A DNA stretch of 50,397 nt, filler included, from Jimgerdemannia flammicorona (taxonomy: Eukaryota): NCBI GenBank assembly GCA_003990765.1. It is 2 parts of 2 records of this genome, joined end to end, with 100 filler letters (N's around TTAATTAATTAA, not from the genome) between each part and the next. Parts side by side here need not be neighbours in the genome. Positions count along the whole stretch, not along the records: positions 25,252 to 50,397 come from RBNJ01000877.1; 1 more part is not named here. One strand, given 5' to 3'. This document shows positions 12,052 to 47,260 of the stretch, one piece after another. Positions within the stretch are counted from its first letter, which is position 1, and each line of letters begins with the position of its first letter. Both the position numbers and the translations under genes were made by a program. The notes below the pieces were generated by a model that saw only the letters and a list, made by a program, of their open reading frames with translations, made no database searches and was not told where the DNA came from.

Positions 12052-12462
12052 TATGATAGTTGATCCAAATTAGAGGGAAATTAGATATTTGATCATAGTA
12101 CCGGAACTCAATTCCCAATATAGTATAGTCTTACAAATAGCAGTCATTTCACAAATGTTAAACTCTTCACAAATGTCAAGAATTAACATTTATGAAAAGT
12201 AACTCATAACATAGTTATACATAACTTAGCCACCTTATAGCTAGAAAACTTATATAAATATCCCCAGTATCTAGAGTGAATAAACCTCAGATCAAAATAG
12301 TTCAAAGTAAAGAGAAAGTAAAGAACTAGTAAGCCTGTGGGCAGATACACTTCAAACTCATCCACTCCTGCATCCTGAGAACTCTGTGGAGTCAAAAAAG
12401 ATCAAGTTTTCAAGATACAGAAATCCAATGTACTTCCAAGATTAAGTATCTGCTATGTTACA
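12052..12462 (+). repeat. E1 3' LTR (about 411 bp), preceded by PPT caggaggaag (12041-12050)
   Basis: Same PPT as E2. Starts tatgatag (decayed TGTGACGG) and ends TGTTACA. TATAAA at 12253, AATAAA at 12279. Confidence 0.8.
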
Positions 12463-16747: not shown

Positions 16748-16849
16748 GTCCCTTAGACTGCTCTTTATTATCAATATCTATAATTCTAACAATACAACAT
16801 CACCCCACCCTCAACCAATGCCCTATGGACCCAATCCTCTGCAGTTCTC

Positions 16850-19800
16850 CCCACCCAGCCCCCAACCTCACCACCAGCTATTCAAAATGTCCAATGGCAA
16901 CCATTCCCAATGTGCTACCTTGTCCCCAACCCCAACCCACTGCCCCTCCTCAAAGACATGAACCCAATGCCCAGCCAACCTAACCCACATAGCCAAAGTC
17001 CAACCAAGTATCAGCCATTCATCCCTAACTCCACCCACTAGTCACCAGCGGAGCTCTCCCCATCTCCCCCCTCTCTCTCCCTCCAAGGCACCCAGCCCTA
17101 CCTGGTCCATAATATATCTCCAAAATTCCTCCAAAACTTCACACTCACTAAGCCAATGTTCAGGTATTTGTACCACCCCTCCCTCCTGACCAATGCCGAA
17201 ACACTCCTCACACTCAAATACCCCACCAGCCACCAAGTGCCCAGACCAATAGTTCAACATCACATTCCACTGTAGGACATACCACCACACCACCCAGAAC
17301 TTGGGGGGCAGCCACTGTCTCACCCTTTTGCTCCAAAGCCAGAGTCTATTTCAATCCCACTCCTCACCAATTCCAACCCTCTGCCAGGCTTCGGGCCACA
17401 GGTCTCCACCTAGGCCTCGCAGATACTCCAGATTCTCGCCAAGTTGAAAGTTCTCCACTGGAACACCACCCAGTAGAAGTCTGTCCCACCACCACATCCG
17501 TGGTCCCCAATCCTCCTTGGCTTCATCACCTTGCCATCAAAGTCTAATTTTCTTTGCACCATCCACCACCCTCCACCAGAAGCCCATAAACTGCATCCTC
17601 CTGCTCCCATCCATGGCCACCATCGCGAGCAGGTCACCCAAGTCACTATGTGGGGAGTACTGAACCTCCCACAACCTCTGCATGAGTGGCACCCACTCCT
17701 GACCCCTAAGCTCACTTGCCCTCTGCAACCACCAAGCTCTCAAACATAGAAGCTGCTTAGTAAAGTCCACTAAGCCCAGCCCACCTCTTTCCAAGGGCAG
17801 TGTGAGTACCTCCCAACCCACTTGGCTTTGCCACCCTCCCCAGATCCATGTTCTCACTATCTTCAACAACCCCTTGACCACCCAGGTTGGGAAATCCAAA
17901 TAATATCCCACATACCACAGCTTTGGCATCCAATACACATTCAGCACCATTACCCTGCCAGCTAGGGACATATGCCAACCTCCCCATTACAGCAGAACAC
18001 TTCCCCACTCCAGAAGTTTTCAATCCCACCATGCCTGGGGAAGAAGGGATCTGAACACCAAGAAGTAGATCTCTAAATAACACACTGGCTCACCAGCTGG
18101 TACTACTATCCCAATGACATCACCACCTACAATTCCAGCACCCAGCACCAGAGTCTCGCATTTGTGCCAGTTTAGTTTAGCACCAAAACCCTCTCATACC
18201 ATTCCACAGACTGCTGTAACTCCCCCACATCTACCAAGGAGCCCAGCCCGACCACTATATCATCAGCAAAGGCCCCCACCTTCCAATTAATCTCTAAAAT
18301 GTCCAAACCCCCAATCTGATGCTAAATTCTATCCAGTAGGGGCTCCAGAGAAAGGGTATACAATATGGGCAACAAGGGGTCCCCCTGCGGTACCCCATGT
18401 CCCAGAGGAAAGGTCACCCCCCTGTGGCCATTAATGACCAATGCCATCTGACTGTCCTCCAAGAGGCTGATCAATGATCCTCGGAACCCTGGGGGGATAC
18501 CAATCCGTTTCAGCACTCCCTCTAGCCAAATCCTCCACACTCTATCATAAGTCTTCTCTTGGTCCAGAAACACCAATCTGCCATTCACCTCTGTTGCCCA
18601 GGCACCTTCAATCACTCCATGTACCCAAGCTGTCCCATCTTGAATCAACCGGCCACCAACAAACCCATGCTGCTCCACACCAAGTACCTGCTGAATGATT
18701 CCTTGTAGCCTCATCACCAGGATCTTCGTCACCAGTTTGTGGTCTATATCAAGAAGTATGATTGGCTGCCAGTTCTTCCAGTTCTCTTGCCTCCCCTTAT
18801 TCTTGTAGAGCAAGGAGACTAGCCCTAAACACTGTCCCCTGATCTAAGCACCAGATCGAAGAACTCCATCACACATAGCAGTCATTTCCTCTAGCACCTC
18901 ACTCACCCCAGTCATCTTCTGCCAAAAATCCCAGGGAAGTCTATCCTCTCTCAGAGCCATCCCCTTATTCATCAAGGCCACAACCTTGCAAATTTCCTTG
19001 CCATGCACCAGGTCCCCCAATGCCCCAAGTCCCATTGCAGGGTTTAGGTACCAATCTCCCAGCTGCCTTTCAACATCCAGAGCATCCATTCCTCCTTCCT
19101 CCTTACTCCATAGATTCTCCCAACTGGTTCTCAATAGGCCCAGAATTTCTGGAGTCCCCACCACCAGCTCGCCATTCATGTCCAGAACTCCCTCCCACTG
19201 CTGCTTCATTCGTCACACTTGTAACAACCATGACAAAAACCTAGTAGGCCTCTCCCCCTCCTCAAGCCCCTGCCACCGCAGTTGGGCCACCATTCCCTGC
19301 AGCTTCACCTCCTCCTCCCTTTGTAACACTCCTTTAAGCTCCTCTACCTCCTGTCAGATTCTCACAATATGCCAATCAGTCACATCCCCATCTTCCAGCA
19401 CATCTGCCCATTGCTCCATGAGTGCTGCCAGATGCCTCGAGGCCCACAGCACCCTCTGCCTTTGCTGGGCACCCTTTCCTTTCCCAGCTTCCCTCCAATA
19501 CCCCTGAGCATTTGCCTTCAGTCTTCTCCAGCAGTCCCCAATCCCAAGGCCTTGTTCCTGCCACCTACTGATATTTCCAACCACCTCCTTTTCCCAATCC
19601 TCCCACAATACCCTATCCTCTAACAAGAAAGAATTTAGCTGCCAATGTCCAGGCCCATCCTCATTTCCCCCAAACCTCCCCCCTCCAAGCAGCCCCCAGT
19701 GATCTGACCACAGACACCAAACTACCTCCAGCCTCAACCAGACATCTGCTCCCCAACACTCCGCTGTCAAAACCCAGTCAATCCTGGAGCCCAGCCCTGC

Positions 19801-20409
19801 CACCCAGTGGATGTATACCTGCCGATTGGCCCAAAAAAGCCTTCCTGAGTCCACTAAAGAACTCAACCTCTCTGTCTCCAACCAGTCACCCAACCCACCA
19901 CTTTTGCCCCATATATCTCTCTCTCCATCTGTTCTATCTATCTCCTTATCCCATATCATGTTGAAGTCACCCCCCATACAGTCCAGCCCAACTTCTCCCA
20001 ATACTCCAGCCTCCTTCAATCTGCGAATCCAATCCATCCTCTCCCCTCTCTCAGCTGGGCAGTAACAAGACCCAACCATCAATGAGCCCCATCTAGGCCT
20101 CTTCTACATTCTCCACACCACCCAAGATCCCCAATGTCCAATGTCCTCAATGTCCCCCATCTCTTTCCAAACAAGAATACACACTTTCTCCCTCCATATT
20201 ACTGCACTCTCCCATTCCTTAGTCCAATCCTGTAAGTCCACATCTGCCTCATAGTGAACATCCTGTAACAAGAAGAGGTCCACATCCAGTCCCTTAAGCC
20301 ATCCAAATATATACTTCCTCCTAGCCACCCCCTGTAACCCATTAACATTCAATGAGAATATCCTAGTTATATTGTTCATATTGAAAGAATGTTGCAATAG
20401 AGACCCCAT
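16850..20409 (-). pseudogene. LINE A ORF2: AP endonuclease + reverse transcriptase + C-terminal Cys finger
   Basis: SLNVNGL, LLQDVH, GGDFN, SRIDW, WSDH, WQLNSFLL, NWQPIILL, DQEKTYDRV, GVPQGDPL, AFADD (about 18260-18275), SLAGRVMVLN, LPLERGGLGL, CEEC. Several stops and frameshifts. Confidence 0.93.
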
Positions 20410-20410
20410 C

Positions 20411-22330
20411 CTAGAATTCCATGCTCATCTCATCCCCAGCCAGATCCAAGTGCCTTTCAGCTTCCAAGTCACCCTCTGCATTAGCCTGAGCATCTAGTGC
20501 CTTTAAGATTTCCTGACATTCTACCCCATCCACTACCTCCATCTCCGACTGATAGTCTAAGCAGACCATGCACCACTTCTCCAGTCCCTTTCTTGAGTTC
20601 CACAAGAATCGTGCCCTATCACTCACAATCCTCCTAAGTTCCTCCTCTCTCTGATCATTAACTTGATATTCAACCAACTCCAGGAGGACAGCCAGGATCT
20701 CGTTCCTAATCTTTCTCAGCACCTCCTCCCCCTGTAGGATCTCCTCCCAATGCCTCTCTTCCATCACCCTGAAATCCTCACCCTCCAGCTCTTCTGCCAC
20801 TACCCCTTCTAGAGTCTTCCACATTCACTTCTCCTCATCCACCACCTCTGCCACACTCTGAGTGATTTGTCCCCCATCTACCTCAGGGTCCACCAATGCA
20901 CTCCTCCTTACTGACTCATCCCACTCCTCATCTGGCACATCCAGCAGCTCCTCCTCTCCCTCAGCTCCACCTGGGACACTATACTGGGGGCACACACCTT
21001 CGCTTATATCCACATCTGCCTCTATATTGCCTTCCCTCTCCACCTCTACTCCCAGCTGAGTCCCGCTCTGAGCCCTTTCACCCCTCTCAGCCCAGGCACT
21101 CTCCTGCAATCCTGCACCCCTCTCCCCTGAGCCTCCACTAGCCCTACCCCCACCCAATCTTGCCAGTAGCTCCTTCTGGATTTTCCTCCCCTATAACTTC
21201 TCCCAGGCCCCCTTCTCCATCCAGACCCTCTTCCCATCCACCTTCCACACTACTATCCAGGCCTCAAACTCCTTCCATGCCAATCTCCTCCTTGCAACTG
21301 CCCCTTCCAGATCCTCCAGAGCCTCCAACAGGTCTTCCTCCTCCTCCTGGGTCCCCTTCACCCTCATGACCTTGCACTCCACCAGTCCCCACCTCAGCAT
21401 TGCCAACCAGTCCCTCAACTTCCCCGTACTCTCCCTCTCAGCCAGCCTCACCTTGACATTGATGTCACTAGTCTGAAGCTCCATACCCTCCCAGACCTTG
21501 AACCCAATATCTACAATCTCTCCATACTCCCTGATCACCTCTGCAACCAACTCCCTGGTCCTCTCCTTCGATACCATAGGAAGATCCAATACCATCAACT
21601 GCACCACTTGGGGGTCCCAGCACATGCACCTGGCCATAGGGACCACAACCCCACCAACTGTCACCCCCTTCTCCAAGGCTGCCAGCAAGGCATCTTCCTC
21701 CTTGAACCCCACCTTGACCCCTTCCTTCCTTTTCAAAAACTTCACCGATGCTGCTCCCTTTGCCTCCTGCGCCACCAGCCCCAAAATCATCCTTGTCGTC
21801 ACCGCTAAGCCCCAGAAATACATTGTGACTGCGAATTCCGACCTCAACTTCTTAAGTAACAGGGCTGACACCATGCCCATCACCCCATCTGCCAGGTCCC
21901 CAGACCTCGTGCCCACTCCCTGTCCTGAATTATCAACCGCCATCACATCTGGATTTTTTGCCAGATCCCTAGTCACAGCCCCATCACCAGTCACATCTCC
22001 AGCCCCTACTCCTGCTCCTTCCCTACCATCAGAAACTCCCCTGGGTACACCTCTCTGTCCCCCAGCAGCAGCTGTTGATGCCTTCCCCAGGCCCAGCCAA
22101 TCATCTAGACCTGAGGCCATCTTCCCCATTCTGACCTTGTCAGCAAAGATCAACCTATCCCCTCCTCTCTGCCTCAGACTGCCCCTCTCTCCACCACCAG
22201 GACCTCAGCTAGCCATTGAGGCCCCTGGCATCCCCAAACTATCTCCCCTCCTCCCCACCTGCTGCCAGCCAAAGGCACCATCACCCCCCTGGCCAGTACA
22301 CTCACTAGTTCATTCATTGCCATCCATATC
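20411..22330 (-). pseudogene. LINE A ORF1 (putative RRM-like core, acidic C-terminus)
   Basis: ORF fragments 21191-22153, 20825-21157 and 20411-20824 lie directly 5' of ORF2. The ORF1 stop is 1 nt before the ORF2 ATG. Confidence 0.75.
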
Positions 22331-22410
22331 AATAGTTGTCAAACACTAAAAACATAGTAAAAGTGTTATCTGAGTCTTGTGTCATCCAAATGTTACTAGT
22401 GAAAGATAAA

Positions 22411-25137
22411 TAGTTTCCAGACCACCTCCCCCATCTTCAGCCCAGTGAGCCTTCCTCTCAGCCATACCAACAAAGGCTCCAAGAATAGGATGTAGAGTAG
22501 GGGTGAGAGAGGATCCCCCTGTGGCATGCCTCTCCCCAAGACAAACTCTGGGCCACTCCACCCATTCATTAGTACCACAGTCTGACAGTCTCACACCAGA
22601 CCCATCAGTTTTCAAGCCTCCAACACACCAAATCCTGTCTTCTGCAGAACTGCCTCCAGATAGTCCCACCTTACTCTATCATATGCCTTTTTCTGATCCA
22701 AGAACACCATTCTCCCATCTACTTGTCAGCTTTGACAGCCCTCCAAGATGTTTTGCACCCAGGCTGTGCTGTCTTGGATCTGTCTCCCTTTTACAAATCC
22801 TCACTGTTCTTCACCCACCAATTGGCCAATCCAACATTGCATCCTCCCAGCCAGGATCTTGGATACCAACTTCCTGTCCACATTCAGTAGCATAATGGGC
22901 CGCCAGTTCCACTACATATGGTGATCCCCTTTCTCCTTATAGAGCAGAGAGACTAATCCTAAGGAGCCATTGCTGATCCAGCAGCCTTCACCTAACACAA
23001 AGTTTGCCATTTCAACAAGCCATCCCCCAAACTTGACTTGGAATTTCTTCCAGAACTCCCAAGGCAGCCCATCCTCTCCTGGTGATGAACCAGCCTGCAC
23101 TTTCCACAGAACCTCCAAAACCTCTTCAAGGGCCACCATATCCATTACCACCCCACCTATCTCAGGCACTGCCACCACTGGCCAGCTGCTAACAAGATTG
23201 TCATTATTCTCTAGTGGAGACACTCTCTCTACCAGACCTCCTCCATCTTGCCATAGAGCATGCCATTGCCCCGAGATCTCTCCAAACATATCAGTAATAC
23301 CAGTAACCTCAACATCATCCTCCCACAACACTGAAGCCCAGCTGTGCCACACTCTTGTGGCCTTCAAGATTCCAGACAAATACCTAGTGGGTCGCTCTCC
23401 TTCCTCCAACTGCCTTGCCTGTAACCTCACCAGTAGCCCATCTACCACCCTATCTTCTGCTGCCTTCAAATCATGCTGCAATTCAGCCACCTCCTTAGCC
23501 AACTGGGAGCATCTCTCTCCAGATAAATTCTCTCCCTCCAGGGATTTCAGCCACCAATATAGCCCCTGTTCAACTCTCCTTTCTCTATCCTTCTGCTCCC
23601 TTCCAGCTACCCCCCCCACATCCTGCCAGTAAGCATGTGCCAAATTCTTGAATTTCCCCCACCACTGTGCTATTGACTGTCTACTGTCTTTCCACCACAC
23701 CACTTTCTGCCTTGCAATTTCTACAAATTGGTCCCTTTCTACCTGCCTTTTGAGTAGTGCCACATTGAGTCGCCATCTACCCCCACCTCTACTGAACATC
23801 TGGAATCTCCTGCACACCTCAACTCTCCAGTGATCTGACCAAGAACACCACTGTACTCCTGTTGAATCCAATATATTGCCTCAGCATTCTACCACTAGAA
23901 TCCAATCAATCCTTGTTCCAACCAAGTCCTCACCAACTAGGTGCCACCTATTAAATGGCCCTGGCCTTTCTCCTTGATGCTGTTGAACCCCATCAACCAA
24001 TCCCATATCTCTCTCTATCTGGAGCCACCATGAGAGCCCAGTAGATACAGCCACACCAACTTCACCATTAGATCTATCTAATGTTCTATCACATACCATG
24101 TTAAAGTCCCCCCCCAGAATGTCCAACCCCACCTCATCCCAGTCTCTCCAAGCCAGCCAGCCTTTTACCCATTGATTCTGCTCTCTGCCAACCACTGGTA
24201 GATAAGTGGAGCCAACCACTAGTCCATCTCCAGCTCCATCTTTCAACCTCCCCCAGACCAATTGATCACCATATACTGTAACTTCCATCAGCTCACCTCT
24301 CCCCAAGCCAACCAAAATGCCCACCTGCTCATTCCAACCTGTACTTCCATACCATTCCCTACTCCAATCCTCATAATCTTGCTCCCCATATACCTGAATG
24401 TCCTGTAGCAATACAACATCATATCTCCTGACCTTTAGCCAATAAAATAGATGCCTTCTCTTCACTCCATTACACAAACCATTAACATTTAATAATAAGA
24501 TATGTAGACTGTTCATCATCATAAATAAAAATGTTTAAAGCTCCACTGGAATCACCACCACCTTCTCTGCCTGACTACAGATTATCACCTTCTATTTCTC
24601 ACAAATTGCCCTCCAGATACTGGCTCCATTTACTCCACTGTAGAATATATTCACTTGCTCAGATACCACCTTCCTGATGTCAGCCATATGGTCCTCATCT
24701 ACCTCATATCCTTCATCATCCAGAAGTGCCACTACCATTGCTGTCACCAACTTCAGTCTCTGTAATGCTATATTGAGGAACCCTTCCCAGACCTCTTGAG
24801 ACTCATTAAATACATCCACTTCCTTGATATCCTCCTCTGCCAGTTCCTCAAGCACTGCCTGATACAAGTCATCAGCCGTCATCACCAAGGGCCCAGGAGT
24901 GGCAGGCCTTGGGGTCCTGCTCAGCTTCTGTAACATCTCTCTGTCTGCCAATATATTAGAGGCCACATCCACCAGGTCATCCTCCTCCATACTCTTCTCT
25001 AGCCTCACCACTTCGCTGGTCTCTGGACACTCCCAATGAATATTTGCAGCTCCTGCCATCTGAATATCCTCCAACTGAGTCTCAGGCACCACCTTGACAA
25101 CCTCCTCGAAACCCCCTACATTTGTCTCCTCCTTATC
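22411..25137 (-). mobile_element. LINE B: related L1/Tx1-like element (ORF1 C-terminus, APE, RT N-half), truncated at both ends
   Basis: LLNVNGL, LLQDIQ, GGDFN, TRIDW, WSDH, EEGERPTRY, SSPGEDGLPWEFW, GMPQGDPLSPLLY. It breaks just before FADD at about 22411. Confidence 0.9.
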
Positions 25138-27222
25138 TTTTTTTTTTTTTTNNNNNNNNNNNNNNNNNNNNNNNNNNNNNNNNNNNNNNNNNNNNTTAAT
25201 TAATTAANNNNNNNNNNNNNNNNNNNNNNNNNNNNNNNNNNNNNNNNNNNNCCACCTTATCATCTACTACTTCAACCCTCCCCCCACTCTGCTGATAAAT
25301 CTTCCCCACTAAGTAATATTGATAACTCTCTTGCAGACTCTATCCCAGCCACCAACCCATCAAGACATCTACTATTCACCCTTCTCACCTTGTCAGTCAC
25401 TCTCCTAAACTCAATTATCTCTCCTCCTCAAAAACAAATAAGCAGTGTCTAGCTAGCCCTACCTATATAGCTAGAGCCCATCTAATTATAAGCCACTCAT
25501 TTCCAATTTCCCCTACCAATCTATCTCTCAAATCTCCCCATCTATCTCACTCATCAACCTCCCTTTTCATCACTCTCAATCAAGTCCCAACTGCTAACTA
25601 AAAGTCTCCAAGTACCTCACACTCTACAAGCCAATATTCTGGTATCTGAATAAAACACCCTTCCTGTTCTACATTATAACACTCCTTATACTCAAATTGT
25701 CCCCCCTCTATAAGATGGCCTGAGCAAAAGTTGAGTATGATATACCTTCTTAGCAAATGCTACCATACCACCTAGAACTTAGATAGCAGCCAATGCTATA
25801 CCTCTGTAATCCAGATCCAAATTCCATTTCAGTCTCACTCTTCTCTAATACCTACTATCTGCCAGCTACTGGGCTATGCATCCTGTCCTAATCCTCTCTA
25901 GTACTCCACTCTATCACTAATATCAAAGTCAATCAGCAGTATACCCCCCAATAACATTCAGTCACATCTCTACATTGCCAGGCCCATAGTATCTCTCTAT
26001 TATTCTCTTACTAGCAAAGACCAATGTGATGTGCCCCATCAACTACCTCCCACCAGAAGCCCTTATACTACATACACCCACTACTCTTAAGCTCAATCAA
26101 GAACAATAGATCTCTAGTAGAGCCTCTTGGTAGAAACTACATCTTTCAGACCTTTTGCATCAGAGAAACCCAACCACCCCCTCTTAGTTCTATAGCTCTC
26201 TTCAGCCATCATATTCTCAGACAATAAAATCTCTTCAGAAAGTCCACTAGCCCATGACCTCCTCTATCTACTAATAATGACAGAATCTCCCAGCTAATCT
26301 GACTTCTTCTCTCAGCTCAGATCCAGTCTTTGACTAGCTTCAAAAGCCTCTTCACTACTCCGATCAGAAAGTCTAAATGATATGCCAAATACCACAGCTT
26401 CAAAAGCCAATAAATATTCAGGATTGAGACACAGCCCACTAAAGAGATGTAGTAGCCTCTCCAGTTCTATAGAGCCTCTCCCCAAATAGCCACCCTCTGC
26501 TCCCACCAAATTCTAGACAGAACAGATCTATAGACTAAGAGAAAAATGTCCAAGATCCACACAGTATCTCCAGCAGAGACAATTGTTCCAATGATATCTT
26601 CTCCCATCAGACTATTACCTAACACTATTGTCTCATACTTGTACCAGTTTAGTTTCACTCCAGAGTATATCTCATATCACTCTACTGTATCCTGAAGAGC
26701 TTCTATATCTGCAATTGACCCAAGGCCCACCACTATGCAATCTGCAAAGGCCCCAACCTTCTAGACAATTTCAAACATAGAAAGCCCCACCATCTTGCAC
26801 TAAATCCTATTCATCAATGGCTCTAAGAATAGAGCATATAAGATAAGAGACAGTGGGTCCCCCTGGGAAATACCTCTATCTAGAGAGAATATTACCCCCT
26901 GATAACTATTATATATGAACACCACTCTACTTCCTTCCAGTAGACTGATTATTGGCACTCAGAACTGCCAGAAGACTCCAATCCTATCCAGCATCTTTAC
27001 TAATCAGATCTACTGGACATAGTCATAGGTCTTCTCCTGATCTATGAAGATCAATCTCTCATCTAGCTCACAGGCTTAAGCTTCTTCAATAATACCATAA
27101 ACCCAAGCTATACCATCTCTGATAAGCCAGCCCCCAACAAAGCCTCTCTACTCCTCACCCAGAACTTGCTGGGCCACCTTCTACAGTCTTGCCACAAAAT
27201 CTTAGTAACTATCTTTCTGTTC
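25138..27222 (-). mobile_element. LINE C: 3' half of a third L1/Tx1-like LINE; poly-T 25138-25151 is its probable tail, across the gap
   Basis: DQEKTYD (about 27030), GISQGDPLS (about 26860), KVGAFAD (about 26745), KLNWYKYE (26658). The C-terminal region is homologous to 17200-17400. Confidence 0.85.
25152..25251. other. Artificial 100-nt scaffold gap with six-frame stop linker
   Basis: N44-TTAATTAATTAA (25196-25207)-N44. Confidence 0.97.
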
Positions 27223-34627: not shown

Positions 34628-35068
34628 ATGCCATCAAACAATATTAACCAACAGATCGTGAAATGCTTGGACGACCGGGATTCCATTCCCGTAAACCAAA
34701 ATGTTTTACATTTGATTCCCGGAGTCACAATCGTATGCGTTTTCATATATGGCTGCTTTACCTGCAGCCGCTTCTCCTCTACACTTCCTCCAATCACTTT
34801 ATCTCTACCACTCCAACTTTAGGGAAACCTCATCATGCGGATCACCCGCTTTAGAATAATTGTCGACAGGAGAGTGACGCCCCCGATTTCCGGAGACGGT
34901 AAGTTTTTTAATTTGTCTTTGTTGTTCCACTTCCATTCGTCACGACCCTCTTGTGTCTTCGAATTTGCTGCAACATCTTTGCGATACTTTATATTCTTGC
35001 CCAATTTCACAGCGGAGCCTCCCCCGCACCTGCCCTGGCTCTCGCTCCCGCCCCGCCTCTGCTCATAG
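34628..35068 (+). CDS. Small 3-exon hypothetical gene (exons 34628-34732, 34823-34898, 35013-35068; about 78 aa)
   Basis: TATATAAA at about 34524, C/A-rich leader, ATG at 34628. Introns GTATGC...TTTAG and GTAAGT...CACAG have compatible phases. Product: MPSNNINQQIVKCLDDRDSIPVNQNVLHLIPGVTI-GNLIMRITRFRIIVDRRVTPPISGD-AEPPPHLPWLSLPPRLCS. Confidence 0.5.
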
Positions 35069-35072
35069 TCAT

Positions 35073-35212
35073 GACCCCGCTCTCGGTCCTGCACCCGTCC
35101 CCGGTTCCAACCTTGTTCCTGCTCGTGGCGCCTGATCCAGCTCTCGGTCCTGCACCCGTCCCCGGCTCCAACCTTGTTCCTGCTCGTGGCGCCTGATCCC
35201 GCCCCCGGCCCT
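35073..35212 (+). repeat. 61-bp tandem repeat (2.3 copies)
   Basis: Units start at 35073, 35134 and 35195 (gacccc/gatcca gctctcggtcctgcacccgtccccgg...gctcgtggcgcct). Confidence 0.92.
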
Positions 35213-35618
35213 AACTCTTTTCCTGCGTATCTGTTCATTCAATGGTATTCATGCGTGCGCAACGGCGGAGCTGCTGCAGGAGTGGCGCCGCCGTGGGATC
35301 ACGACATTGACGGCGGACGCCAATATGAAATGGGGGTGAGCTTCTGTTAGTAATTTGGAGTTCTGGAAGAAGGGGATTGTTTATTTTGATATTCTTGTAA
35401 TGCATTCCAGAAATTATTGATGACGTAAAGATTGATGACTTTTGAAGACGTTTACATTTAAACATAAGCTATTCAAATTTCCGTTACTCAAGATATAACG
35501 AATGTAAGCAAAGAAGGAATGACAAACGAACTACATGTAAGCAAAAGAAGAACCATCTGATTCATATAATATAGGAAATGTAGTGAAAATGTAGAATGTA
35601 GATATATATTGAATATAT

Positions 35619-36927
35619 TGTAATGGTGACCTCAGAATGGTGACCATATGGCATGAGCATGACTTATTCAGGCTATAAGATAAGTAATGATGATTAATTA
35701 TGAGTTGTAATGACCACAAGATAGATATCTTGAGAAATATAAAAGAAGGATAAGAAACTGCAGTAGCAGCAATTCAAACAAGATTCACAAAATCCCTAAA
35801 TAGTTCAAAAGACTTATTATAAACAAAATACTTGCTGTTTATTAAATCATAAGATCTTGAAATTATTAAAGCTTTTTAGTTTAAGAAAGGATATTCCAAG
35901 ACATCAGGAAAGCTATGAGGACTTACACCAGAAGAATTTCTAGCTTCAACCTGAGTACTGGTGACTTTTATCACTTTACTCTCTACTGTTGTAAAATAGA
36001 GATAAGGATAACTACTGCTATGAAATGCTTCTGGATGTAGCAGGAATATGAAATAAGAAACCTTCTCTGCCAGGTGAATTCTCTTAGGTCAGTTCTCAAG
36101 AGATATAAGATATCACTTTTATAAATATATATAAATTGAGAGTAGCCAAAAATATCTATCAAGTTTTCAGATATGTATATATCTTGATCAATCTCCAACT
36201 TGGAGCTCACTAGAGTCTCAGACTTCAAAGAATTGTCAGCTCACTACACAGATACACTGGAGGCTATAGTGTCCACAGAAGCTCAATCTGCCATCATTCT
36301 CAAAAGTGATGAGATAGAAGAGTTTTGAAATCTCATCCTTAAGAATAATCCAGATTAATTCTTATAAGAATTAATCTTAATATTCCAAGGCTCCAGTATC
36401 CAGGTCAGACTCTCTCAAGATCTTACCTTTGTCTCCTACTTTATGGAGGAAAATATAATAGATTGAAGAATCCCTGATCTTCTTACTGTCATTGAACATG
36501 ATGATGTCACTGTTGATAACATCATCTCACTAATTGATACATATGAAATAAATAAAACAGAAATATTTACTGACCTTATTTCCTTCAAAGACATTCTGTC
36601 TCTAACCTCTAGCCTTGATGACAGTGATGAAGACAAAGTCTCCAGAATTTTGAACATTCTACTCTGATTTATTTATATAATCATTTATTTGAATACTTGA
36701 ATGTTCTGGCATTCTGACTTCATGCAACTATCAGAAATTATTCCAGTCTTCTACTCAATTCTATGCAAGTAAATCTAAGAGACAACAAAACAGTTTAAAT
36801 ATAAGAAGTTTGAGGACTATAAGATCTTAAGAAGGTACTTCAATAGAACTTACTTATAAGAAATTTAAAGTTGGTCTAAGAGATATATCTTCATATACTT
36901 GGAGAACTCAGTACTTACTATATGATA
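35619..36927 (+). repeat. E2 5' LTR (1309 bp; lacks the distal TATA/AATAAA segment)
   Basis: Starts TGTAATGGTGACCTCAGAATGG and ends tatgata (decayed TGTGACA). Homologous to 42542-44095. Confidence 0.93.
35828..36667 (+). pseudogene. LTR-encoded ORF, 5' LTR copy
   Basis: Colinear with the ORFs at 42780-43591 and 44347-45191. TATAAAA at 35738. Confidence 0.75.
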
Positions 36928-37053
36928 ACTTGGTGTCTATTGGCTGGTAATATCATTAGGATATCTCACTTTCAAGCTGAGTAATGAACAATTACCAAAA
37001 CAACTACTCTGACTACAAGAGTTATTTTTACAAAAATTCAAGATAAGATAGAA

Positions 37054-40000
37054 ATGTGTCCTCCTACATTCTATAGATTTACTACTAAAGAATCAATCTT
37101 AACCTTCATTGAAGACTTTGAACAATTTGCTACTATATAAGCTCTTAATATTGAAACACAATTGGCCCTTCTATCTATCAGCCCCAGAGGACCTGTCAGA
37201 GACAAGTTCAATACAGCTACCATTACTAACAATAGTATAGCCAAACTCACTAATATGAAGAACTTCTTCAGAACTATATACATATTATACTGAAGAGATC
37301 AAGCAAGCTCTCAAAGATCAACTCAATACTATCTGCTAAGAACTCAATAAAGACCCCAACTTATTCTATACTTGAATCTACCAACAGATTGTCTTGGCTG
37401 TCTATGATGATACTCTCAAGGAATAGATAGCTGATTCAATCCTAAAAAATATCTACTATGAAATTGCCCTAGCAATCTGGTCTACTCCAGTTGCTCTAAC
37501 TCTTAACTAGAAAGTGGTCTTTGTATAGAGATATTAGACTACCAGACACTCTGCTGAACACTCAATGGAAAGGATAACTGGCATCAAGATAGAGCTACTA
37601 AAGCCAATTAGTATCATACTTACTATAGCTCTCAATAGATAACTATCTCCACCTACTCCCAAGATGGCCAAAGCTGACCCAGTAGAGAAACTCATCCAGC
37701 AGTTTGTCAAGATGTCTACATACCTTGATGATATTATTAGATACATAAGTATGAAGTACTAATAAGAGACCAGTATAGAGAAGAAGACCACTATGCAAGT
37801 AATTGTATAACTAAAACAAGATACAGAGTTCAACCAAGTAATGCTACCAGAACTAGAGAACAAATCAATATGGTAGTTATCAAGAAGATTAGTAACACTG
37901 ATGATGAAGAATACTATGAGGAGTCTAAATTCTATCCTGTTACTGAAGATACCAGAACTCAGTCTAAGCCCTATGACAAGAAGAGCAACAGCAAGCCAGT
38001 TGGAAGACTAAAAAAGACTCCAACCATCACTATTCAAAGTAAGATCCAATCTGAGGAGTTTGATTAAGACATGGAGTTAGATAAAGCTGCTTATCAAATT
38101 ATTGAAGATACTACTCTAGTCTCAGAAAAAAGTGAAAGCAAGAAAGAACAGAAGCTATATAAGACCAAGGTCTATCAGTATGATATCTATAAGATCTCAA
38201 GGAACAGAAGATCAATGCTACTTTTGAACAACTAGCAGAAGTCTCTGTCTTCAGATAGCAGTTGAGAGCAGAACTTGTAACCACTATTAAGAACTAAGAA
38301 TACAAGATCATAGAAGCTTACAATATACAAGAAGATGAATAAGAAGACTTAGGCAAAGAATCTGAAGATCAGTACAAGACCTCAGCCTATACCCAATGTC
38401 AGATTGAAGATTGTATCTTTAATACTATCATTGATATCAGAGCTAGAGAATATCTTATAAGCAAGAAGACAATTGGCTGCCTAGGCTGGAATATTGAAGA
38501 ATCTATCAAAATGATCTATATCACAGTAAATGATATATAAGCTACCCCTCTAGGTAAGATCTGAGAAGTCTTCATCAAGATCAAAAAAGCTACCATCTCA
38601 GTAGATTTAATTATTATGAGTACCACTAACTATGACATCCTCATTAGTAACTAATGGCTTCACAAGACCAAGACTATTATTGACCTCAATGCTCAGAAGA
38701 TACAGATCAACTATAAAGGAAGAAAGGTATGAGTCTCTATCAATATCTACAAAGGAGTACTACCAGATATAGAGAAAGGAGATGAAGAGAATACAGAAGT
38801 CTTCATATACTTAGTATATAAGAACAAGAGCAAAACAACTAAGCTCATAGATGTGCAGTGATATAACAAGATTATTGATGACTATGTCTCTTAAGAAAGA
38901 TGCTCTCATGGTACTAAAATATACTGCTCTGAACACCTAAATAACTGCTGGTTCTATATCAGTGAAGTTAGAAAAATCTGTTAAAAAAAGTATAAGCAAG
39001 AAGTAGCTAAAGCAAAAAAGAAAGCCAAAGAAGATGACCAGCCCCCAGAGCATTAAGCTGATAGTAATAATGAGGAGGAACAAGAACCAGACATCACTCT
39101 CAAGATCAAGAAGTTTCACCTTAAAGCTAAGATCCCAGAATACAAAACTGAAGGAGCTATAGAAATAGACCTTATCAGTATCCAAGATACTATCCTTGAA
39201 CCACAGACCACTACTCTACTTAGTACTGGTATTAGAGTTAAGTTATCAGAGAGTCATGCCAGAATTATCAAGACCAGGAGCTATTTGGCCAAGAGTGAAA
39301 TCTCAGTTGAAGGAGGAGTCATTGACTCTGATTACACTAGTGAGATCTTCCTTATAGTCAGGAATCACAACCCCACCACTCCATTTGAAGTCAAGAAGCA
39401 TGACAGGATTGATCAGATACTGATCCATAAAGTTAAGAAGTCTAAGATCACTGAAGCCATTAAACTCATCAAGACTAAGAGAGAAAAACAAGACTTTGGA
39501 TCTACTAGAAGAGGAGTCTATACTACTACTAAGATTACCAAACACAAGCACAAGAAAGTCAAGGATCAGAATAAGCATATATATATATACCATTGGAGAA
39601 AACTTTCTCCTAAAAGAACAACTTCTCAAGATCCTGCACTAGAATAAAAGAGTACTCACTACAGACTTCAGGAAGAACTCAAGTACTACCACAAAGTTGA
39701 CACCAGTAATACTAAGCCCATCTACTAGAAAGCCAGACCCATACTACCTACCTACAGAGAATGGCTGCAAGCAGAACTCAAAGAAATAGAAGAAGCTGAT
39801 ATCATCAGGCAAGCTATTAGTCTCTGTGCTTCACCCATTGTCCTCATCTCAAAGAAAGAAAGCAAGCCTGGAGAGTTTGCCCTAAGACTCTGTAATGATT
39901 ACAGAAAGCTCAATGCAATTACCAAGAAGGATAGGCAGCTCTTGCCAAATATTCAAGAAATCCTTACTACTCTTAGAAGTGAAGCCAATTACTATACTAC

Positions 40001-40999
40001 CTTGGATCTGTTCTCAGGCTTCCATCAGATTGGTCTCATTCAAGATGCCAGTGAGAAATCAGCCTTTATCATACCTGATACTATCTATATCTACCTATGA
40101 ATACTATTTGGAATATGCAATACCCTAGCAGGTTTTCAGCAAATGATGAATAGAGTCTTTAGTAATGAAATTGAAAAATGGCTCTTTGTCTATATTGATG
40201 ATGTGATCATCAGTAATACTACACAGAAATATATCAACTATATACAGTTAGCCCTTAAGAAGCTCAAGGAGTATGGCCTCTATATCAAGCCCAAGAAGTA
40301 CAAGTTTGCAGCTTAAGAAATTACCTACCTAGGACATATCATCAACTAGAGTAGAATTCATATAGACCCCATAAAGATTGAGACTATCACAGCCTACCCA
40401 AGACCCAGAACAACTACAGAAGTCCATGTCTTCCTTGGACTGGCCTCCTACTATAGAAGATTCATCAAAAGATACTCCAACATTATAGTATCTATCTATG
40501 AGCTACTGAAGAAGAAGATCAAATCTAGAAATATCAAGAAATCTTCAACAAACTCAAGACTAAGTTGACCCAAGCACCCATTTTCAGAAGACCAGATTGG
40601 AACCTAGAGTTCATCCTCAGACAGATATAAGTACTATAGAACTTGGAGTAGTACTAGCTCAGAAGAAAGATGGATATGAATATGTCATCTTCTATGCAAG
40701 CTGAGGTATCCACAGAGCAGAACAGAACTACAAGTTATGTAAGCTTAAATACTTAGCAATAGTCTGGGCAGTAGACAAGTTCCACTACTACTTAGCTGGG
40801 AAATACTTCATAGACTATTCTGCTCTTACCTAGCTATTCCACACTCTGAATCCTAAAATAATATATGCCAGATAGATCTACAGACTGCAAGAGTATAACT
40901 ATACTATCAAATACTACTCAGGAAGAACCAATGCCAATACTGATGCACTTTTTAAAGATACCCCAAAACACTCCCATCAAGACTATTCAACATGAATAA
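37054..40999 (+). pseudogene. pol: E2 gag-pol (gag, protease about 38400-38760, Cys/His module 38901-38957, dUTPase about 39100-39510, RT-RNaseH about 39600-40999)
   Basis: IIDIRAR (PR), RSYLAKSEISVEGGVIDSDYTSE and REKQDFGSTR (dUTPase), LDLFSGFHQI, YIDD (40191-40202), YLGHII, FLGLASYYRRFI, GRTNANTDAL. Confidence 0.92.
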
Positions 41000-42175
41000 G
41001 AAGCTATACTATAGATTAATCAGCTATCTTAGGCAGCAGAAAATGCCCAACTACCTCAAACCCTGGACTATCACTATTATAAACCAGACTTGGAAAAAAT
41101 TTGAACTAGACAACACCACACTCAGAAAAAGAGAAAAACTCATTATATCTAAATACAAGAAGTATCAAATAATGATGGAAGTATATATAAGGACACCTAG
41201 GAGGAACCAATATATATAACAAGGCAAAAAGAACCATATGGTGGTCTAAGATAGAAGAAGACCTACATCAATTTATCAAAGGGTATGACAAGTGCCAAAA
41301 ACAGAAATAACATCAGCAAAACCAGATACCTGGATCATCAAGAATCAAATCTATCCCCTTCCACCATATTACAATGGACATCATTGGACCACTATTAGTA
41401 ACTCTATCAGAAAACCACTATTGTAGATCTCTTTATCAAATAGATAGAAGCAAGAGTATTACAAGAAGTCAATGCTCTCTCTATTGCTGACTTTTTATAC
41501 TGAGAAATCATCTACCACTACAAGACACTAAGAGAAATCACCACAGACTATGGTACAGAATTTTTCAACAGATTCTATGAGATAATATATCAGAAATATA
41601 AGATTCAGTATATCAAGACTACTGTGTATCACTCTCAAGGAAATGGACAAATAGAAAGAATAAACAAGACCCTCAAGAACATTCTGACCAAGATCTCAAA
41701 TACATATGAGAATTGGGATAACTACCTCCTAACTGCCCTCTCTATTCTACAAGATATATAGTTACAGAGTACACATTTTACCTCAAGAGAACTGCTTTTC
41801 AGAGAAGAAGATTCTGATGAAACCTCAGCTACAAATCTAGATCTAACTTAGTAACAGATTAACTCAGAAATCTGGAGACTACACCAAATCAGGAAGAAGG
41901 TAGAAGATTACATCATCAAGTTACAAGCAATAATAAGGAAGAATGTGGAAAAGAATCACAAGACCCTAGAACTTATTCAAATTGGAGAAAAGGTTCTACT
42001 ATATCAAAATATAATAGAAGCCTCATAGTTACAAAAACTGAAGCCCAAATGGGAAGAACCCTTCTATGTACAAGATATCAAGAGAACTACCTTCTGGCTT
42101 AGAAAACTCTTAGGGACCATACTGCCTACCATAGTATATAGAAATAGACTTAAGAAGTACTATGAACCTATATAA
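40992..42175 (+). pseudogene. int: E2 integrase, in a separate ORF starting MNKKLYYRLISYL
   Basis: GHLGG, DKCQK, MDIIGPL, TTDYGTEF, HSQGNGQIERINKTLK, KWEEPFYV. Confidence 0.9.
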
Positions 42176-42187
42176 GAGAAACAAAAT

Positions 42188-42498
42188 ATGATGACTACCT
42201 GTAAGGTTCTAGTCCATAAATCATAACAGCATATCCTATGACCAGCAGGTAATCTGTCTGGATCATTCTCTAAGGAATATGGTATAAGTAACTACTCATC
42301 TATGAGATTTTCAAAGCTAGAGAAGTTCAAACTATCAACTGATTGATCAAGATCAGAATCAGACACTTACTCTATATGAAGGAAGCTATCCTTCACCATT
42401 ATATCAAAATATATAAAGAAGACACCAGTCTATAAATATCACTTTTCAACTCCTTGCCAGAGGTTATGGAATTAGAAAATGTTTTCAAACTGGACTAA
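42188..42498 (+). pseudogene. E2 ORF3: small accessory ORF between integrase and PPT
   Basis: ...LLIYEIFKAREVQTIN*LIKIRIRHLLYMKEAILHHYIKIYKEDTSL*ISLFNSLPEVMELENVFKLD*. Same position as E1 ORF3. Confidence 0.5.
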
Positions 42499-42541
42499 TG
42501 AATAAGAACATTCAGGAGAAGATCCTTATTCAGGAGGAAGA

Positions 42542-44095
42542 TGTAACAGTGACCTCAGAATGGTGACATCATTACAGGAGACAGCCTTTTCTTACAAGCT
42601 ATTAGATTAGAGTATAAGAAGATTATATGGTATAACTCACCCAGGCTATAAGATAAGCAATGATGACCAACCATGAGTCATGACAACTATAAGATAGATA
42701 TCTCAAGGAATATAAAAGAAGGACTAAGAAACTGCAGCAGTAGTAACTCAAACAAGACTCACAAAATTCTACAAACAAAATACCTACTGCTTGCCAAACT
42801 GCAAGGTCCAGAAATCACTAAGGCTTCTCAGTTCAAGAAAGGATATTCCAAGACATCAGGAGAGCCATAAGGATCTGTACTAGAAGGATTCCTAGCCTCA
42901 ATCTGGATACTAGTGACTCTTATCACTTTACCCTCTACTGCTATAAAATAGTAACAAGGATCACTACCACTACTGAATATCTCTAGATGTGACAGGAATA
43001 CAAAATAGGAAACTTCCTCTATCAGAAATTCCCTCAGACCAGTCCCCAAGAGATATAAGATGCCACTCCTATAGATGCATATAAATTGAGGGTAGCCAAA
43101 AAGATCCATCAGGTCTTCAGATATATATCTTGGTCAATCTCCAACTTGGAGTATACCAGAGTCTCAGACTTCAAGAAATTGTCAGCCTGCTATACAGATA
43201 CACTAGAGGCCATAGTGGTCACAGAAGTCCAATCTACTATCACTCTCAAAAGTGATGAGGTAAAAGAGTTCTAGAATTCCATCCTCAAGGATTAATCTCA
43301 GTATTCTAAGGCTCCAGTATCCAGGTCAGACTCTCTCAAAATTCCACCTTTGTTTCTTACTTTGTAGAAGAAAAAGTCATAGATTGGAGAGCCCCTGATC
43401 TCCTTCCTACTGCCATCAAACATGATGATATTACTGGTGATAATATCATCCTGCTAATTAACACATATGAAACAAATGAAACAGAAATATTCACTGATCT
43501 TATTTTCTTCAAAGATATCCTATCTCCAACCTTTAGCCTTGATAATAGTGACAAAGACAAAGCCCTCAGTAGTTTGAACATTCTACTCTGATTTGTTTAT
43601 ATAACTATTTGTTTAAATACTTAAATGTTCTGGCATTCTGACTTTATGCAACTGTCAGAAATTATTCCAGCATTCTGATCTTGTTTAACCAATTGTATGA
43701 GCACTTGAATTTATACTTACAACCTGAAGTTTTCTATATTCAAATATATTATTTAGTTATTGGATTTTATATTTAGCTTTATATCTTAATAACTATTAAA
43801 TTACATTTTGTATAAATACTCCTCTCATTTTCTTTGAAATAAAGTCAGTATTAAAACACTCAAGTATTCAAGTATCCAACTACTCAAGAGTACAGAAGTT
43901 CTGGTCCTCTACTTAATTCCATACAAGTAAATCTAAGAGACAACAGAATATTTAAAGATAAGAAGTTTGAGGACTATAAGATCTTAGAAAGGCACTCCAA
44001 TAGAACTTACTTATAAGAAACTTATAGTTGGTCTAAGAGATATATCTTGAAGAGAATCTAATATACTCAGAGAACTTAGTACCTACTATATGACA
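42542..44095 (+). repeat. E2 3' LTR (1554 bp)
   Basis: Runs TGTAACAGTGACC...TATGACA. TATAAAA at 42711, TATAAA at 43811, AATAAA at 43838. Confidence 0.95.
42780..43591 (+). pseudogene. LTR-encoded ORF, 3' LTR copy
   Basis: Reads through, in frame, both junctions that are frameshifted in the solo LTR: ...DATPIDAYKLRVAKKIHQVFR... and ...QVRLSQNSTFVSYFVEEKVIDWRAPDLLP... Confidence 0.78.
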
Positions 44096-44346
44096 ATATA
44101 TATATTGTAACGGTGACTCCAGAATGATGACATTAGTACAGGAGACAGTCCTTCCTTGCAAGCCACCAGATCAGAGCACAAGAAGATTATATGGCATATG
44201 AGATGAGCAATGGTGACCAACTGTGAGTCATTGTGACCACAGTATAGTATCTCAAGGAATATAAAAGAAGGATCAAGGAACTGCAGTAGCAGCAACCAAC
44301 AAGACCCACCAATCCCAAAATAGCTCAAAGACTTACCACAAATGAA

Positions 44347-45191
44347 ATGCCTGCCACTTGCCAAACCTCAAGATCAAGGAACCACCAAGGCACCTCAGTT
44401 GAAGAAAGAATGTTCCAAGACATCAGGAGAGCTATGAGGACCTGCTTAAGAAGGACTCCTAGTGTTGACCTGGGTACTGCAGACCTATATCACTTCATTC
44501 TCTACTGCTGTGAAATGGAAATGAGGATCACCATTGCTACCAAATGCCTCCAAATATGGCAAGAGTACAAAATAGGAAACCTCCTCTGCTGGGAGTTCCC
44601 ACAGACCAGCTCTCAAGAGCAACAAGATGCCACTCTCATGGATATATGTATGCGAGACAAGAATAGCTAAGAAGATCCATCAGATCTTCAGGCATGCACC
44701 ATGGTTGATCCCCAACTTGAAGTATGTCAGAGTCTCAGACTTCAGAGACCTGTCATCCTGCGATATCAATGCACTAGAAGCCAGGGTGGCTACAGAAGCT
44801 CAGTCCACAATCACCCTCAATAGTGATGAAGTAGAAGACTTCTGGCACCCCATCCTCCAGAACAACCCAGACCAATTCCTGCAAGGATTGATCTCAGTAT
44901 TCCAAGGCCCAAGCATCCAGGTTAGACCTCTCCAAGACCCTCTATTTTGTGGAAGAGAACCTCATAGACTGGAGAGCTCCAGATCTCCTTCCCGATTTCT
45001 CTACCACCAAACATAATGATGTCATCGGTGATGATGTCATCCTGCACAACTTCGAAGTATGCGAAACACATGACCTACATGATGAATTCATGGACCTCAT
45101 CTCCTTCAAAGATATTCTGACCTCTGATGATGAGGATGAAGCCCCCATAGTTCTGAACTTTCTGCTCCAAGTTCTTTGTTACACTGAATAA
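44347..45191 (+). pseudogene. LTR-encoded ORF of about 280 aa, best-preserved copy (two frameshifts)
   Basis: ORF-track pieces 44347-44670, 44627-45016 and 44949-45191 join into one protein. TATAAAA at 44260 is upstream and AATAAA at 45472 is downstream. Confidence 0.8.
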
Positions 45192-45345
45192 TGCCAGCAC
45201 TGGCATTCTGAGATGATGCAGAATTGTTCCAGCACCGGTATTCTGAGGTGATGCAGAATTGTTTCAGCACTGGTATTTTGATGTAATACTAAATAATGCC
45301 AGCACCAGTATTCTGATATAATACTGAATTATACCAGCATCCTGA
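45185..45345 (+). repeat. 35-bp tandem array (about 4.5 copies) in the solo LTR
   Basis: cagca(c/t) recurs at 45195, 45230, 45265, 45300 and 45335. Confidence 0.92.
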
Positions 45346-45762
45346 ACCTATACAACCATCAGTACCGACCCTGGAACTTAGTAGTTTTAGTTATTGGAAT
45401 TTATATTTAGCTTTATATCTTAGCAAACATTGAATTATATTTTGTATAAATACCCCTCTTATTTCCTCTGAAATAAAGTCAGTTCCTCTCAGTACAATAT
45501 ACATACTTCCTTGCAAGCAATCTAAAAGATAACAAGATAGTTTAAAGATAAGAAGTTTGAGGACTATAAGACCTTAGGAAGGCACTCCAATAAGAACTTG
45601 CTTATATCAAACTTGAGTTAGTCTAAGAGATACACCTTGAAGCGAATCTGGTGTATTTGAAGGACTCAGTGACCACTATGTGACAATATATATAATATTT
45701 AAAATATAGAAAGACTTTTTAAGGATCTGAAAAATAGTTATATTAATATAGAGATTATATAA

Positions 45763-47260
45763 TATTGGAATGGTAACTTGATATACCAGTATATGACTTA
45801 TGCTATCTCATCAATTTTATATTATTTATTAATAATGTGTAAAATATATAACCTATATAACTTTAATAAAATTGATCTCTTTTACAACAAAGGTTATAAG
45901 CCTTGCTAGTGCTAAGTACATAGCTATAGTAATCCATCTCTTTAATATATATAAAAATATTAAGTGAAGATCAGCCTAGCTACTCTAGCTATATAGATAT
46001 ACTAATTGAAAGTATTTTAGCAATATTATAAGAAAAACAGTCTCAGTTATTAGTGTAAATATATATGATCAAGAGGTCTATCCCAGTCTTTAATAGGAAA
46101 GATTATACTATTTAGACATTTAGTATGATGAATCTTTTGAAAAAATGCAGCTTGGTAGAGTATATAAAGTTACAGGTACAAATTCAAGATTAAGATACTG
46201 TAAATAATTATTAAGCATTATATGAGATCACTTTTATTCTTTCAAACTCACAAATGAAGCTTGTAATATATATTACAATAGTATATAATATGTGAGAAGC
46301 TCTATACAATTATTATATATAGGTATCTATATATATTAAATTATTTTAACCTAAAATCTCAGTTATTTAATATTCAAATAAAATACAAAAGGAGATTATT
46401 TACAAATATACTGATTATGTTTATAATTTAGTAAATTAAGTGAATTCTCTCAATATATCTGCAGATTATATTGATGATAAAGATAAGATCTTAATACTTT
46501 CAAGAGGTCTCTTAGAAGTATATATATAATATTATTATTACAGCTATACATAAAAGCAGTAAGTTGGCAGATTATACCTATATAATAATGAGTATTATGA
46601 ATGAGAATATATACTAAGAAAACAGTATTGATGATAATGATAATATCTTATATAAGTTCTGCAGACATAATAGTAAATAAGACCAAAGCTAGCATAGATA
46701 GAGTCAATGATATAAATAATAATAATAATAGCAAGACCAGTGAACCCAAATTCAAAATCAATATAATATTAGTCATTAATTAAGTATAATGGTTATTATG
46801 AATACTATAGCAAATATAGATATAAGAAGTACTGTTATTATTACTGAGAAAATAATATGAAGAGTAATAAAAATAAGCAATAATATAGAGACTGGTATTG
46901 ATAATATAGAGATAGCAAAAAAAATTATTAAGGTAAAGAGAAGTATAATAATACAAATACTGCTAAAACTGATAATAATAGTAGTATATTCATTATAAAA
47001 GCAATATATATAAAAGACCTTGAGAATATATCTACTACTAAATTCACTAACTCATTATTTACTACTAGTACTAGTTCTGCAAATATAAGATCTATAAGCA
47101 ACTCTACTATCAACCTAATATCTATAACTAGTTAGTAAAGTACTTTTAGACTAATGAAAAGTAGTAATATTATTGAAATTTCTATTATTTTGATAACTTA
47201 ATAATGTGGCTTATATATAACTATATTATCTTTAAGCTATATCATTCAATATATAAATAT
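45763..47260 (+). mobile_element. Ty1/copia remnant 1 (short LTR about 45763-45889, PBS, gag), truncated near protease
   Basis: tattgga...acaaca followed by aggttataagcc, a decayed GGTTATGAGCC half-tRNAiMet PBS as in copia/Ty5. gag is homologous to remnant 2. Confidence 0.65.

Follow-up and report, generated by a model that had tools for sequence, protein, structure and literature searches.

The locus described here raises the question whether a retrotransposon can carry a protein-coding gene inside its long terminal repeats (LTRs). Because retrotransposon LTRs are regarded as non-coding control regions and masked prior to gene prediction, a conserved protein gene inside an LTR would be systematically missed. 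In the present study a stretch of 50,397 nucleotides from Jimgerdemannia flammicorona (GCA_003990765.1), composed of two joined parts and hereafter called the window, was analyzed with regard to three long LTRs of a Ty3/gypsy family, all of which contain the remains of one open reading frame (ORF), referred to as LTR-ORF. We regard LTR-ORF as very probably a real LTR-borne gene, and a genuine accessory gene situated wholly within the LTRs of one dUTPase-bearing Ty3/gypsy lineage is, with some reserve, probably the best explanation overall. Searches of open-access papers and preprints revealed no earlier description of LTR retrotransposons with a protein ORF in the LTR. If the explanation is true, LTR-ORF would be a non-retroviral counterpart to sag of mouse mammary tumour virus (MMTV), and it would offer a well-defined candidate for a regulator encoded by the element.

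The reading frame inside the LTRs

The stretches 35619-36927, 42542-44095 and 44106-45685 are copies of one repeat, as seen in a three-way full-length alignment with a mean column identity of 77%, and have TG..CA ends, the terminal CA of the first copy being changed to TA. The first copy (LTR_A, 35619..36927, plus strand, 1309 bp), which is followed by a primer-binding site (PBS)-like TTGGTG... at ~36930, and the second (LTR_B, 42542..44095, plus strand, 1554 bp) are the 5' and 3' LTRs of a single element, E2. The third (LTR_C, 44106..45685, plus strand, 1580 bp) starts 10 nt after LTR_B, represents a second subfamily and is the least decayed, with a GC content of 42% versus 32-34% in the more decayed copies. 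As no PBS was recognised 3' of LTR_C in the window by reading of the sequence, it was classified as a solo LTR. In the soil-metagenome run X1, which holds 1970 related contigs (260 of these at least 99% alike), eight contigs show an LTR_C-type end running into the same PBS-like sequence as that after LTR_A, and this type therefore also acts as a 5' LTR elsewhere.

Each LTR has a frame of roughly 270 codons, and none of the three is open; the ORF of about 280 codons announced in a preliminary description of this DNA is thus met here only in broken form, with stops, frame breaks and two lost start codons. In LTR_A (35828..36667, plus strand; tblastn with residues 9-268 of the family protein P0004, E value 1.7e-77) ATG is replaced by ATA, and 12-13 stop codons and two small insertions are present. 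The frame of LTR_B (42780..43591, plus strand; E 7.3e-87 with P0004, in two frames) likewise has ATA for ATG, six stop codons within the 215 codons compared and, near 43290, a deletion of 25 nt. LTR_C (44347..45191, plus strand; E 1e-97 with P0004, in three frames) has kept the ATG and has no in-frame stop, its frame being broken near 44645-44650 and at 44940, where other copies among the run X1 contigs possess 11 extra letters; it runs eight codons beyond the usual stop of the family, which is lost. Both breaks of LTR_C are crossed in frame by LTR_B (tblastn), as had been described, and the frame occurs in both LTRs of E2 as well as in the solo LTR, which agrees with the expectation of two copies per provirus and one per solo LTR. 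That the LTRs of the window are still complete expression units is not supported, all three copies being broken.

Intact homologues were detected elsewhere, on contigs from soil metagenomes. A search with one window piece retrieved three proteins among 11 candidates, another with an intact homologue of 247 amino acids (aa) seven among 382, and HMMER, run exhaustively against 1.84 billion representatives, gave five matches, down to 34% identity, all of them family members. The homologues form 10 clusters with 21 listed members of 247-342 aa, situated on short metagenome contigs of the Joint Genome Institute (JGI) or ENA; they are annotated only as 'hypothetical protein', and no source provided a name. 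Several begin with MPA... or MPP..., like LTR_C, and the alignment of the family displays a conserved core of ~215 residues, followed by a variable acidic tail at the end of which P..LNF is conserved. Protein identity across lineages ranges from 28 to 56%, with only about 55% for the lineage of L001. This DNA locus of 1345 nt, the one locus obtained from 380 pattern matches in a metagenome scan (a scan of viral contigs yielded 0 of 19), has TATAAAA at 4, ATG at 69 and an intact ORF of 323 codons ending at 1040; downstream follow TATAAATA at 1218 and AATAAA at 1244, and then a part collinear with the U5-like (unique 5') part of the window LTRs. None of the sequencing runs listed as containing the sequence is recorded as RNA. 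Related contigs are also present in runs X6 and X13, which are guessed to be RNA, but assembled contigs do not reveal the start, end or strand of a transcript.

Selection on the frame was assessed by the ratio of nonsynonymous to synonymous differences per site (pN/pS) over codons 1-215, codons with gaps or stops being skipped, in the frame of LTR-ORF and in the two shifted frames. Between LTR_C and LTR_B the ratio was 0.357 in frame and 0.92 and 1.04 in the shifted frames (191 codons used, six skipped for stops). It had been stated that the peptide is kept between the two subfamilies, and a dN/dS below 1 had been set as the check; the values bear this out, and conservation extends to a more distant lineage, L001 versus LTR_C giving 0.345 in frame and 1.03 and 1.32 shifted (206 codons used, none with stops), an approximate value because L001 and the window differ at synonymous sites almost to saturation (pS 0.73). 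Differences by codon position amounted to 0.23/0.16/0.37 between LTR_C and LTR_B (chi-square, p = 2.6e-6). Between LTR_B and LTR_A, the two LTRs of E2, where differences arose after insertion, pN/pS was 0.46 in frame and 0.67 and 0.55 shifted, and differences by codon position were 0.21/0.16/0.24 (chi-square, p = 0.17). Purifying selection on LTR-ORF between lineages, along with almost neutral differences between the two LTRs of E2, is thereby shown, and the frame-specific substitutions imply that LTR-ORF was constrained during subfamily divergence and decayed neutrally after these insertions. Since intact homologues exist elsewhere and the constraint is specific to the frame, a chance origin of the frame is excluded.

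Signals around the frame and their possible use

A proximal TATAAAA precedes the frame in all three LTRs on the plus strand, namely at 35738..35744 in LTR_A (90 nt before the start codon position 35828), at 42711..42717 in LTR_B (69 nt before the start codon position 42780) and at 44260..44266 in LTR_C (87 nt before the ATG at 44347), in good agreement with the 70-90 bp reported beforehand. The 21-nt block at this motif is identical at 18-19 of 21 positions (86-90%) among the three LTRs, the flanks at 45-75%, and its core is identical at 11 of 11 positions in the distant contig L001. A distal pair follows on the plus strand in LTR_B (43811..43843, TATAAATA at 43811 and AATAAA at 43838) and in LTR_C (45445..45477, TATAAATA at 45445 and AATAAA at 45472; this block is 82% identical to that of LTR_B), 27 nt apart in both, as expected from the earlier mention of a second TATA-type box with AATAAA 27 bp further on in two LTRs; in LTR_A this part is absent through deletion. 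LTR-ORF is located inside the LTR, between the proximal TATAAAA and the distal pair, and tblastn detected no further copy of it in the internal region of E2. Because it lies wholly inside the LTR, each element has two copies and each solo LTR one.

Between the end of the ORF and the distal TATA of LTR_C, a tandem repeat with a unit of 35 nt and 4.4 copies was detected by Tandem Repeats Finder (45186..45339, plus strand), which is possibly an enhancer-like repeat of U3 (unique 3'). It contains short inverted words of the TGCCAG..CTGGCA type and has fewer copies in LTR_B. No Rfam family was found within 35000-46500, and no tRNA anywhere in the window.

The distal pair can be interpreted with the help of a related element without LTR-ORF. 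E1 (454-12462) is 67-69% identical to the internal region of E2 and has a dUTPase at 2451-2948; its 3' LTR (12052..12462, plus strand) is 411 bp long and, as noted previously, has only the distal pair (TATAAATA at 12253, AATAAA at 12279) and no ORF. Its 5' LTR was not recognisable, positions 1-453 being unrelated C-rich sequence. Consequently LTR-ORF appears to be an optional extra, and the lack of the gene in E1 suggests that it is not needed for basic transposition. The pair is common to LTR_B, LTR_C, L001 and the ORF-less LTR of E1, with a spacing of 26-27 nt; since it is shared with the latter, it is taken as the putative core promoter and poly(A) signal of the family, and the spacing would imply a very short R (repeat) region, with everything upstream, LTR-ORF included, belonging to U3. 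From these motifs we infer that LTR-ORF is part of U3 and that the distal pair marks the U3/R border.

Whether LTR-ORF has its own promoter is, on the motifs available, an evenly balanced question. If it does, transcription would start ~30 nt past the proximal TATAAAA, and the mRNA of ~1.2 kb would end at the LTR poly(A) signal and could arise at each intact LTR, whether paired or solo; a use of this signal by LTR-ORF is consistent with the observations. It is a tentative and rather doubtful extension that each LTR, including the many solo LTRs that recombination leaves behind, would be an autonomous unit of promoter, ORF and poly(A) signal, which could supply a trans-acting nuclear factor, either activating the family's own LTRs or counteracting silencing by the host, from hundreds of loci even after loss of gag/pol. 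On this extension, an LTR retrotransposon would carry and preserve an accessory function in a novel manner, and the protein would have a new orphan fold. Were the cassette transcribed alone, solo LTRs would be dispersed sources of a retroelement protein rather than inert scars, which would change the reading of LTR copy number, recombination and silencing in the host.

The most serious competitor accepts LTR-ORF as real and LTR-borne, but not as self-contained: its mRNA would be a spliced subgenomic one from the main promoter, with an acceptor just upstream in the 3' LTR, or the proximal TATA would be the genomic promoter and LTR-ORF the first cistron in a very long R. We assign this a low, yet by no means negligible, probability. 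Splicing has a precedent in Sag of MMTV, which according to the available part of the source is translated from two spliced transcripts, which use an acceptor located in the 3' LTR immediately upstream of the ORF (PMC3026287), and the alignment of the three window LTRs displays a conserved CTGCAG..AG stretch between TATA and ATG, before the AG of which, however, no clear pyrimidine tract was discerned. As U3 is contained in every genomic RNA 3' end, LTR-ORF would moreover be transcribed in any case. Against both variants, TATAAAA has retained its position 65-90 nt upstream of the ATG in all four sequences compared, the three LTRs and L001, the last from a lineage of only ~55% protein identity. 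A long R is further opposed by the distal pair, which is shared with the ORF-less LTR of E1 and fits a genomic promoter, so that R would be short.

The protein family and its possible function

The product of LTR-ORF is shown by the comparisons made to belong to an orphan protein family of ~250-340 residues without detectable relative among known protein families. No Pfam family matched at E<=0.01 in any of 14 members (14/14), and the family profile had no match to PDB sequences at E up to 1. Sporadic hits of members to ATG5_HBR (two members, best E 0.088) and GAE_BBS1 (one member, E 0.23) were discarded as noise. The window pieces gave only a match to DUF3557, which remained below threshold (20.6 bits versus a cut-off of 26.2). 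When five family members were compared with the 50-kb window by tblastn, only the three LTRs matched, everything else having E>=0.02; neither the internal region of E1 or of E2 nor the region of a LINE-like (long interspersed nuclear element) sequence therefore shows similarity to LTR-ORF below this value. That the frame derives from gag/pol or a nested transposon was rejected, given the lack of tblastn similarity and of any transposable element domain in Pfam.

AlphaFold and Foldseek, which had been recommended as a check, were applied. The two AlphaFold runs reached a mean predicted local distance difference test (pLDDT) score of 44.7 and 48.6, the second with 61 of 323 residues at >=70. At this low confidence the models agree in a mostly helical core, a disordered tail and two short strands around the conserved YFVEEN.IDWR. 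Foldseek returned no PDB match at E<=0.001 for these low-confidence models. In the ESM Atlas the best feature score was 0.83, less than the level of 0.9 for a lead, and structural comparison gave a template modelling (TM) score of at most 0.33 by query. In VIA-align the highest Z was 6.1, for a helical hairpin, and six of 48,161 chains had Z>=5, which is below the noise level quoted for helical models; a few TetR-type rows at Z 4-5 were not accepted as evidence.

It might be argued that LTR-ORF is a passenger, i.e., a piece captured from a host gene or from some other mobile element and of no use to the LTR. Capture of foreign ORFs by LTR retrotransposons is known, as stated in the accessible part of PMC5408684, and E1 transposed without LTR-ORF. 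Nevertheless this is very unlikely: purifying selection is specific to the frame across lineages of 28-56% protein identity, the 1.84 billion representatives yielded no host-like or transposon-like relative beyond the five family members, none of the 14 members matched a Pfam family at the threshold given above, and L001 retains the full-length ORF, the start context and the upstream TATA. Hardly credible, finally, is the notion that there is no gene at all, the peptide likeness being a by-product of nucleotide conservation in a regulatory LTR or the LTR borders being misplaced around an internal frame. The window has no open copy of the frame, which speaks for this notion; other DNA, however, contains uninterrupted frames of 247-342 codons, the third-position excess and a pN/pS of 0.35 are found in this frame only, and the frame precedes the PBS in the 5' LTR and also occurs within a solo LTR.

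Concerning function, the composition of the protein offers some hints. P0004 has a net charge of +8 in its first 60 residues, where its N-terminus is rich in arginine with runs such as RRAMRTRTRR, and of -14 in its last 61; five members have a calculated isoelectric point (pI) of 4.5-4.9, and the tails of all long members contain repeated acidic-hydrophobic motifs of the DLISF.D type and end in P..LNF. This charge layout fits a nuclear protein with a nucleic-acid-binding part or import signal and an acidic effector tail. Such a protein would have a nuclear role in regulating the element, be it as a transactivator, an anti-silencing factor or an RNA-handling factor; that the product regulates transcription or silencing of its own element is conceivable, if at present unlikely, and a helper of RNA export or packaging would be, as a guess, the next candidate.

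Several points weigh against the explanation preferred here. All three copies in the window are dead. L001 is the single DNA locus from outside, and because its sequence runs from the TATA box onward without reaching the end of the LTR, its status as an LTR rests on collinearity. Selection was measured on four DNA sequences only, with the near-saturated synonymous differences of L001 mentioned above, and the structural models are of low confidence and had no counterpart in PDB. The borders of U3, R and U5 as well as the expression of LTR-ORF are deduced from DNA motifs, and the function proposed is deduced from composition.

Known systems, the carrier element and further features of the window

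The closest analogue of this architecture is sag of MMTV: in both, the LTR contains a protein ORF of ~300 codons, which makes it unusually long, and the gene is present in each LTR copy. A Sag family exists in Pfam, and neither Sag nor any other retroviral accessory Pfam family was found at E up to 1 in 14/14 members. The LTR length is similar as well, about 1.3 kb in MMTV as given in the available part of PMC3026287 compared to 1.3-1.6 kb here. Unlike LTR-ORF, sag belongs to a vertebrate betaretrovirus and not to a Ty3/gypsy element, and Sag is made from spliced mRNAs, whereas a TATA box is situated directly upstream of LTR-ORF.

Among Ty3/gypsy-type elements, the additional ORFs (aORFs) of plants, the ORF3s of bdelloid rotifers and CERV of Cer1 resemble LTR-ORF in being lineage-specific extra genes of mostly unknown function, as far as the accessible parts of the sources extend (PMC7264820, PMC5408684, PMC10309623). 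According to the same partial texts, aORFs and ORF3s are placed in the internal region between the LTRs (PMC7264820, PMC5408684), whereas LTR-ORF occurs only in LTRs; in the available part of PMC7264820, a term search for 'in/within/inside the LTR' gave 0 occurrences. Like the members of the aORF/ORF3 class, LTR-ORF is lineage-specific and conserved as a protein, being absent from E1 and under frame-specific constraint.

Two further systems are functional analogies of LTR-ORF. The foamy-virus gene tas/bel1 encodes a regulator of ~300 aa near the 3' end, with an internal promoter and an acidic activation region; it is a retrovirus gene located before U3, which it overlaps only partly. No similarity to LTR-ORF was detected. 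Cassandra, a terminal-repeat retrotransposon in miniature (TRIM), possesses in each LTR a 5S RNA gene with its own promoter, so that the gene is copied along with the LTR and persists in solo LTRs; this is an RNA gene of Pol III, unlike the protein gene considered here.

The carrier element E2 is a member of Ty3/gypsy (Metaviridae) in view of its direct LTRs, PBS, purine tract and the pol order reverse transcriptase (RT)/RNase H/integrase. Its decayed internal region (36928..42541, plus strand), delimited by LTR_A and LTR_B and characterised by Pfam and sequence reading, contains on the plus strand a dUTPase (39057-39644, Pfam 4.8e-22), RT (39729-40313, RVT_1 6.5e-07 and 7.6e-08), RNase H (40564-40830, RT_RNaseH 1.2e-08) and integrase (41191-41758, Integrase_H2C2 4.3e-09), and the purine tract (42532-42541) lies directly before LTR_B. 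The nearest named relative of the carrier pol is a gag+dUTPase protein of Geosiphon pyriformis with 32% identity. A dUTPase before RT is common to E1 and E2, basidiomycete elements and Juno, Vesta and TelKA of rotifers (PMC2864245, PMC5408684, available parts), and an ORF inside the LTR, as in the lineage of E2, is not described for the dUTPase-bearing fungal or bdelloid elements in these portions of the two sources.

CpG is strongly depleted, its observed/expected ratio being 0.15 in the whole window and 0.03 in E2 and LTR_C (35619-45685). After insertion LTR_A gained 60 C>T versus only 25 G>A changes, a strand-biased pattern. Classical repeat-induced point mutation (RIP) as the sole cause of decay was rejected, C>T changes being even across CpA, CpC and CpT. 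Just upstream of E2, a 61-nt tandem repeat at 35072-35199 (2.1 copies, 95% matches) is situated in a GC-rich patch and overlaps a minus-strand ORF of 139 codons without Pfam match.

E1 is split by an insertion of ~5.9 kb at 4370-10307, which is bounded by inverted arrays of 33-nt units at 4531-4686 and 10045-10259 that are mutual reverse complements and resemble those of DNA transposons with subterminal repeats. The four ORFs scanned from this insertion had no Pfam match. A T run of 77 nt inside it (8770-8846) may represent the poly(A) tail of a further retroposed sequence on the minus strand.

The remaining conspicuous region, at 16672-25200 on the minus strand, comprises one or more LINE-like non-LTR retroelements with endonuclease-like ORFs and an RVT_1 domain at 18325-18843 (E 3.3e-14). 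When 30 further ORFs of the window were compared with Pfam, one RVT_1 match was obtained, and this came from the LINE. Its region has a GC content of ~50% with a strong C skew on the plus strand, in an otherwise AT-rich window, and adjoins a run of N at ~25150-25200, which appears as X in the translation of 24592-25203 on the minus strand. A run of 73 T at 16672-16744 looks like the poly(A) tail of the LINE, and two similar endonuclease-like stretches within the region suggest that two copies are present.

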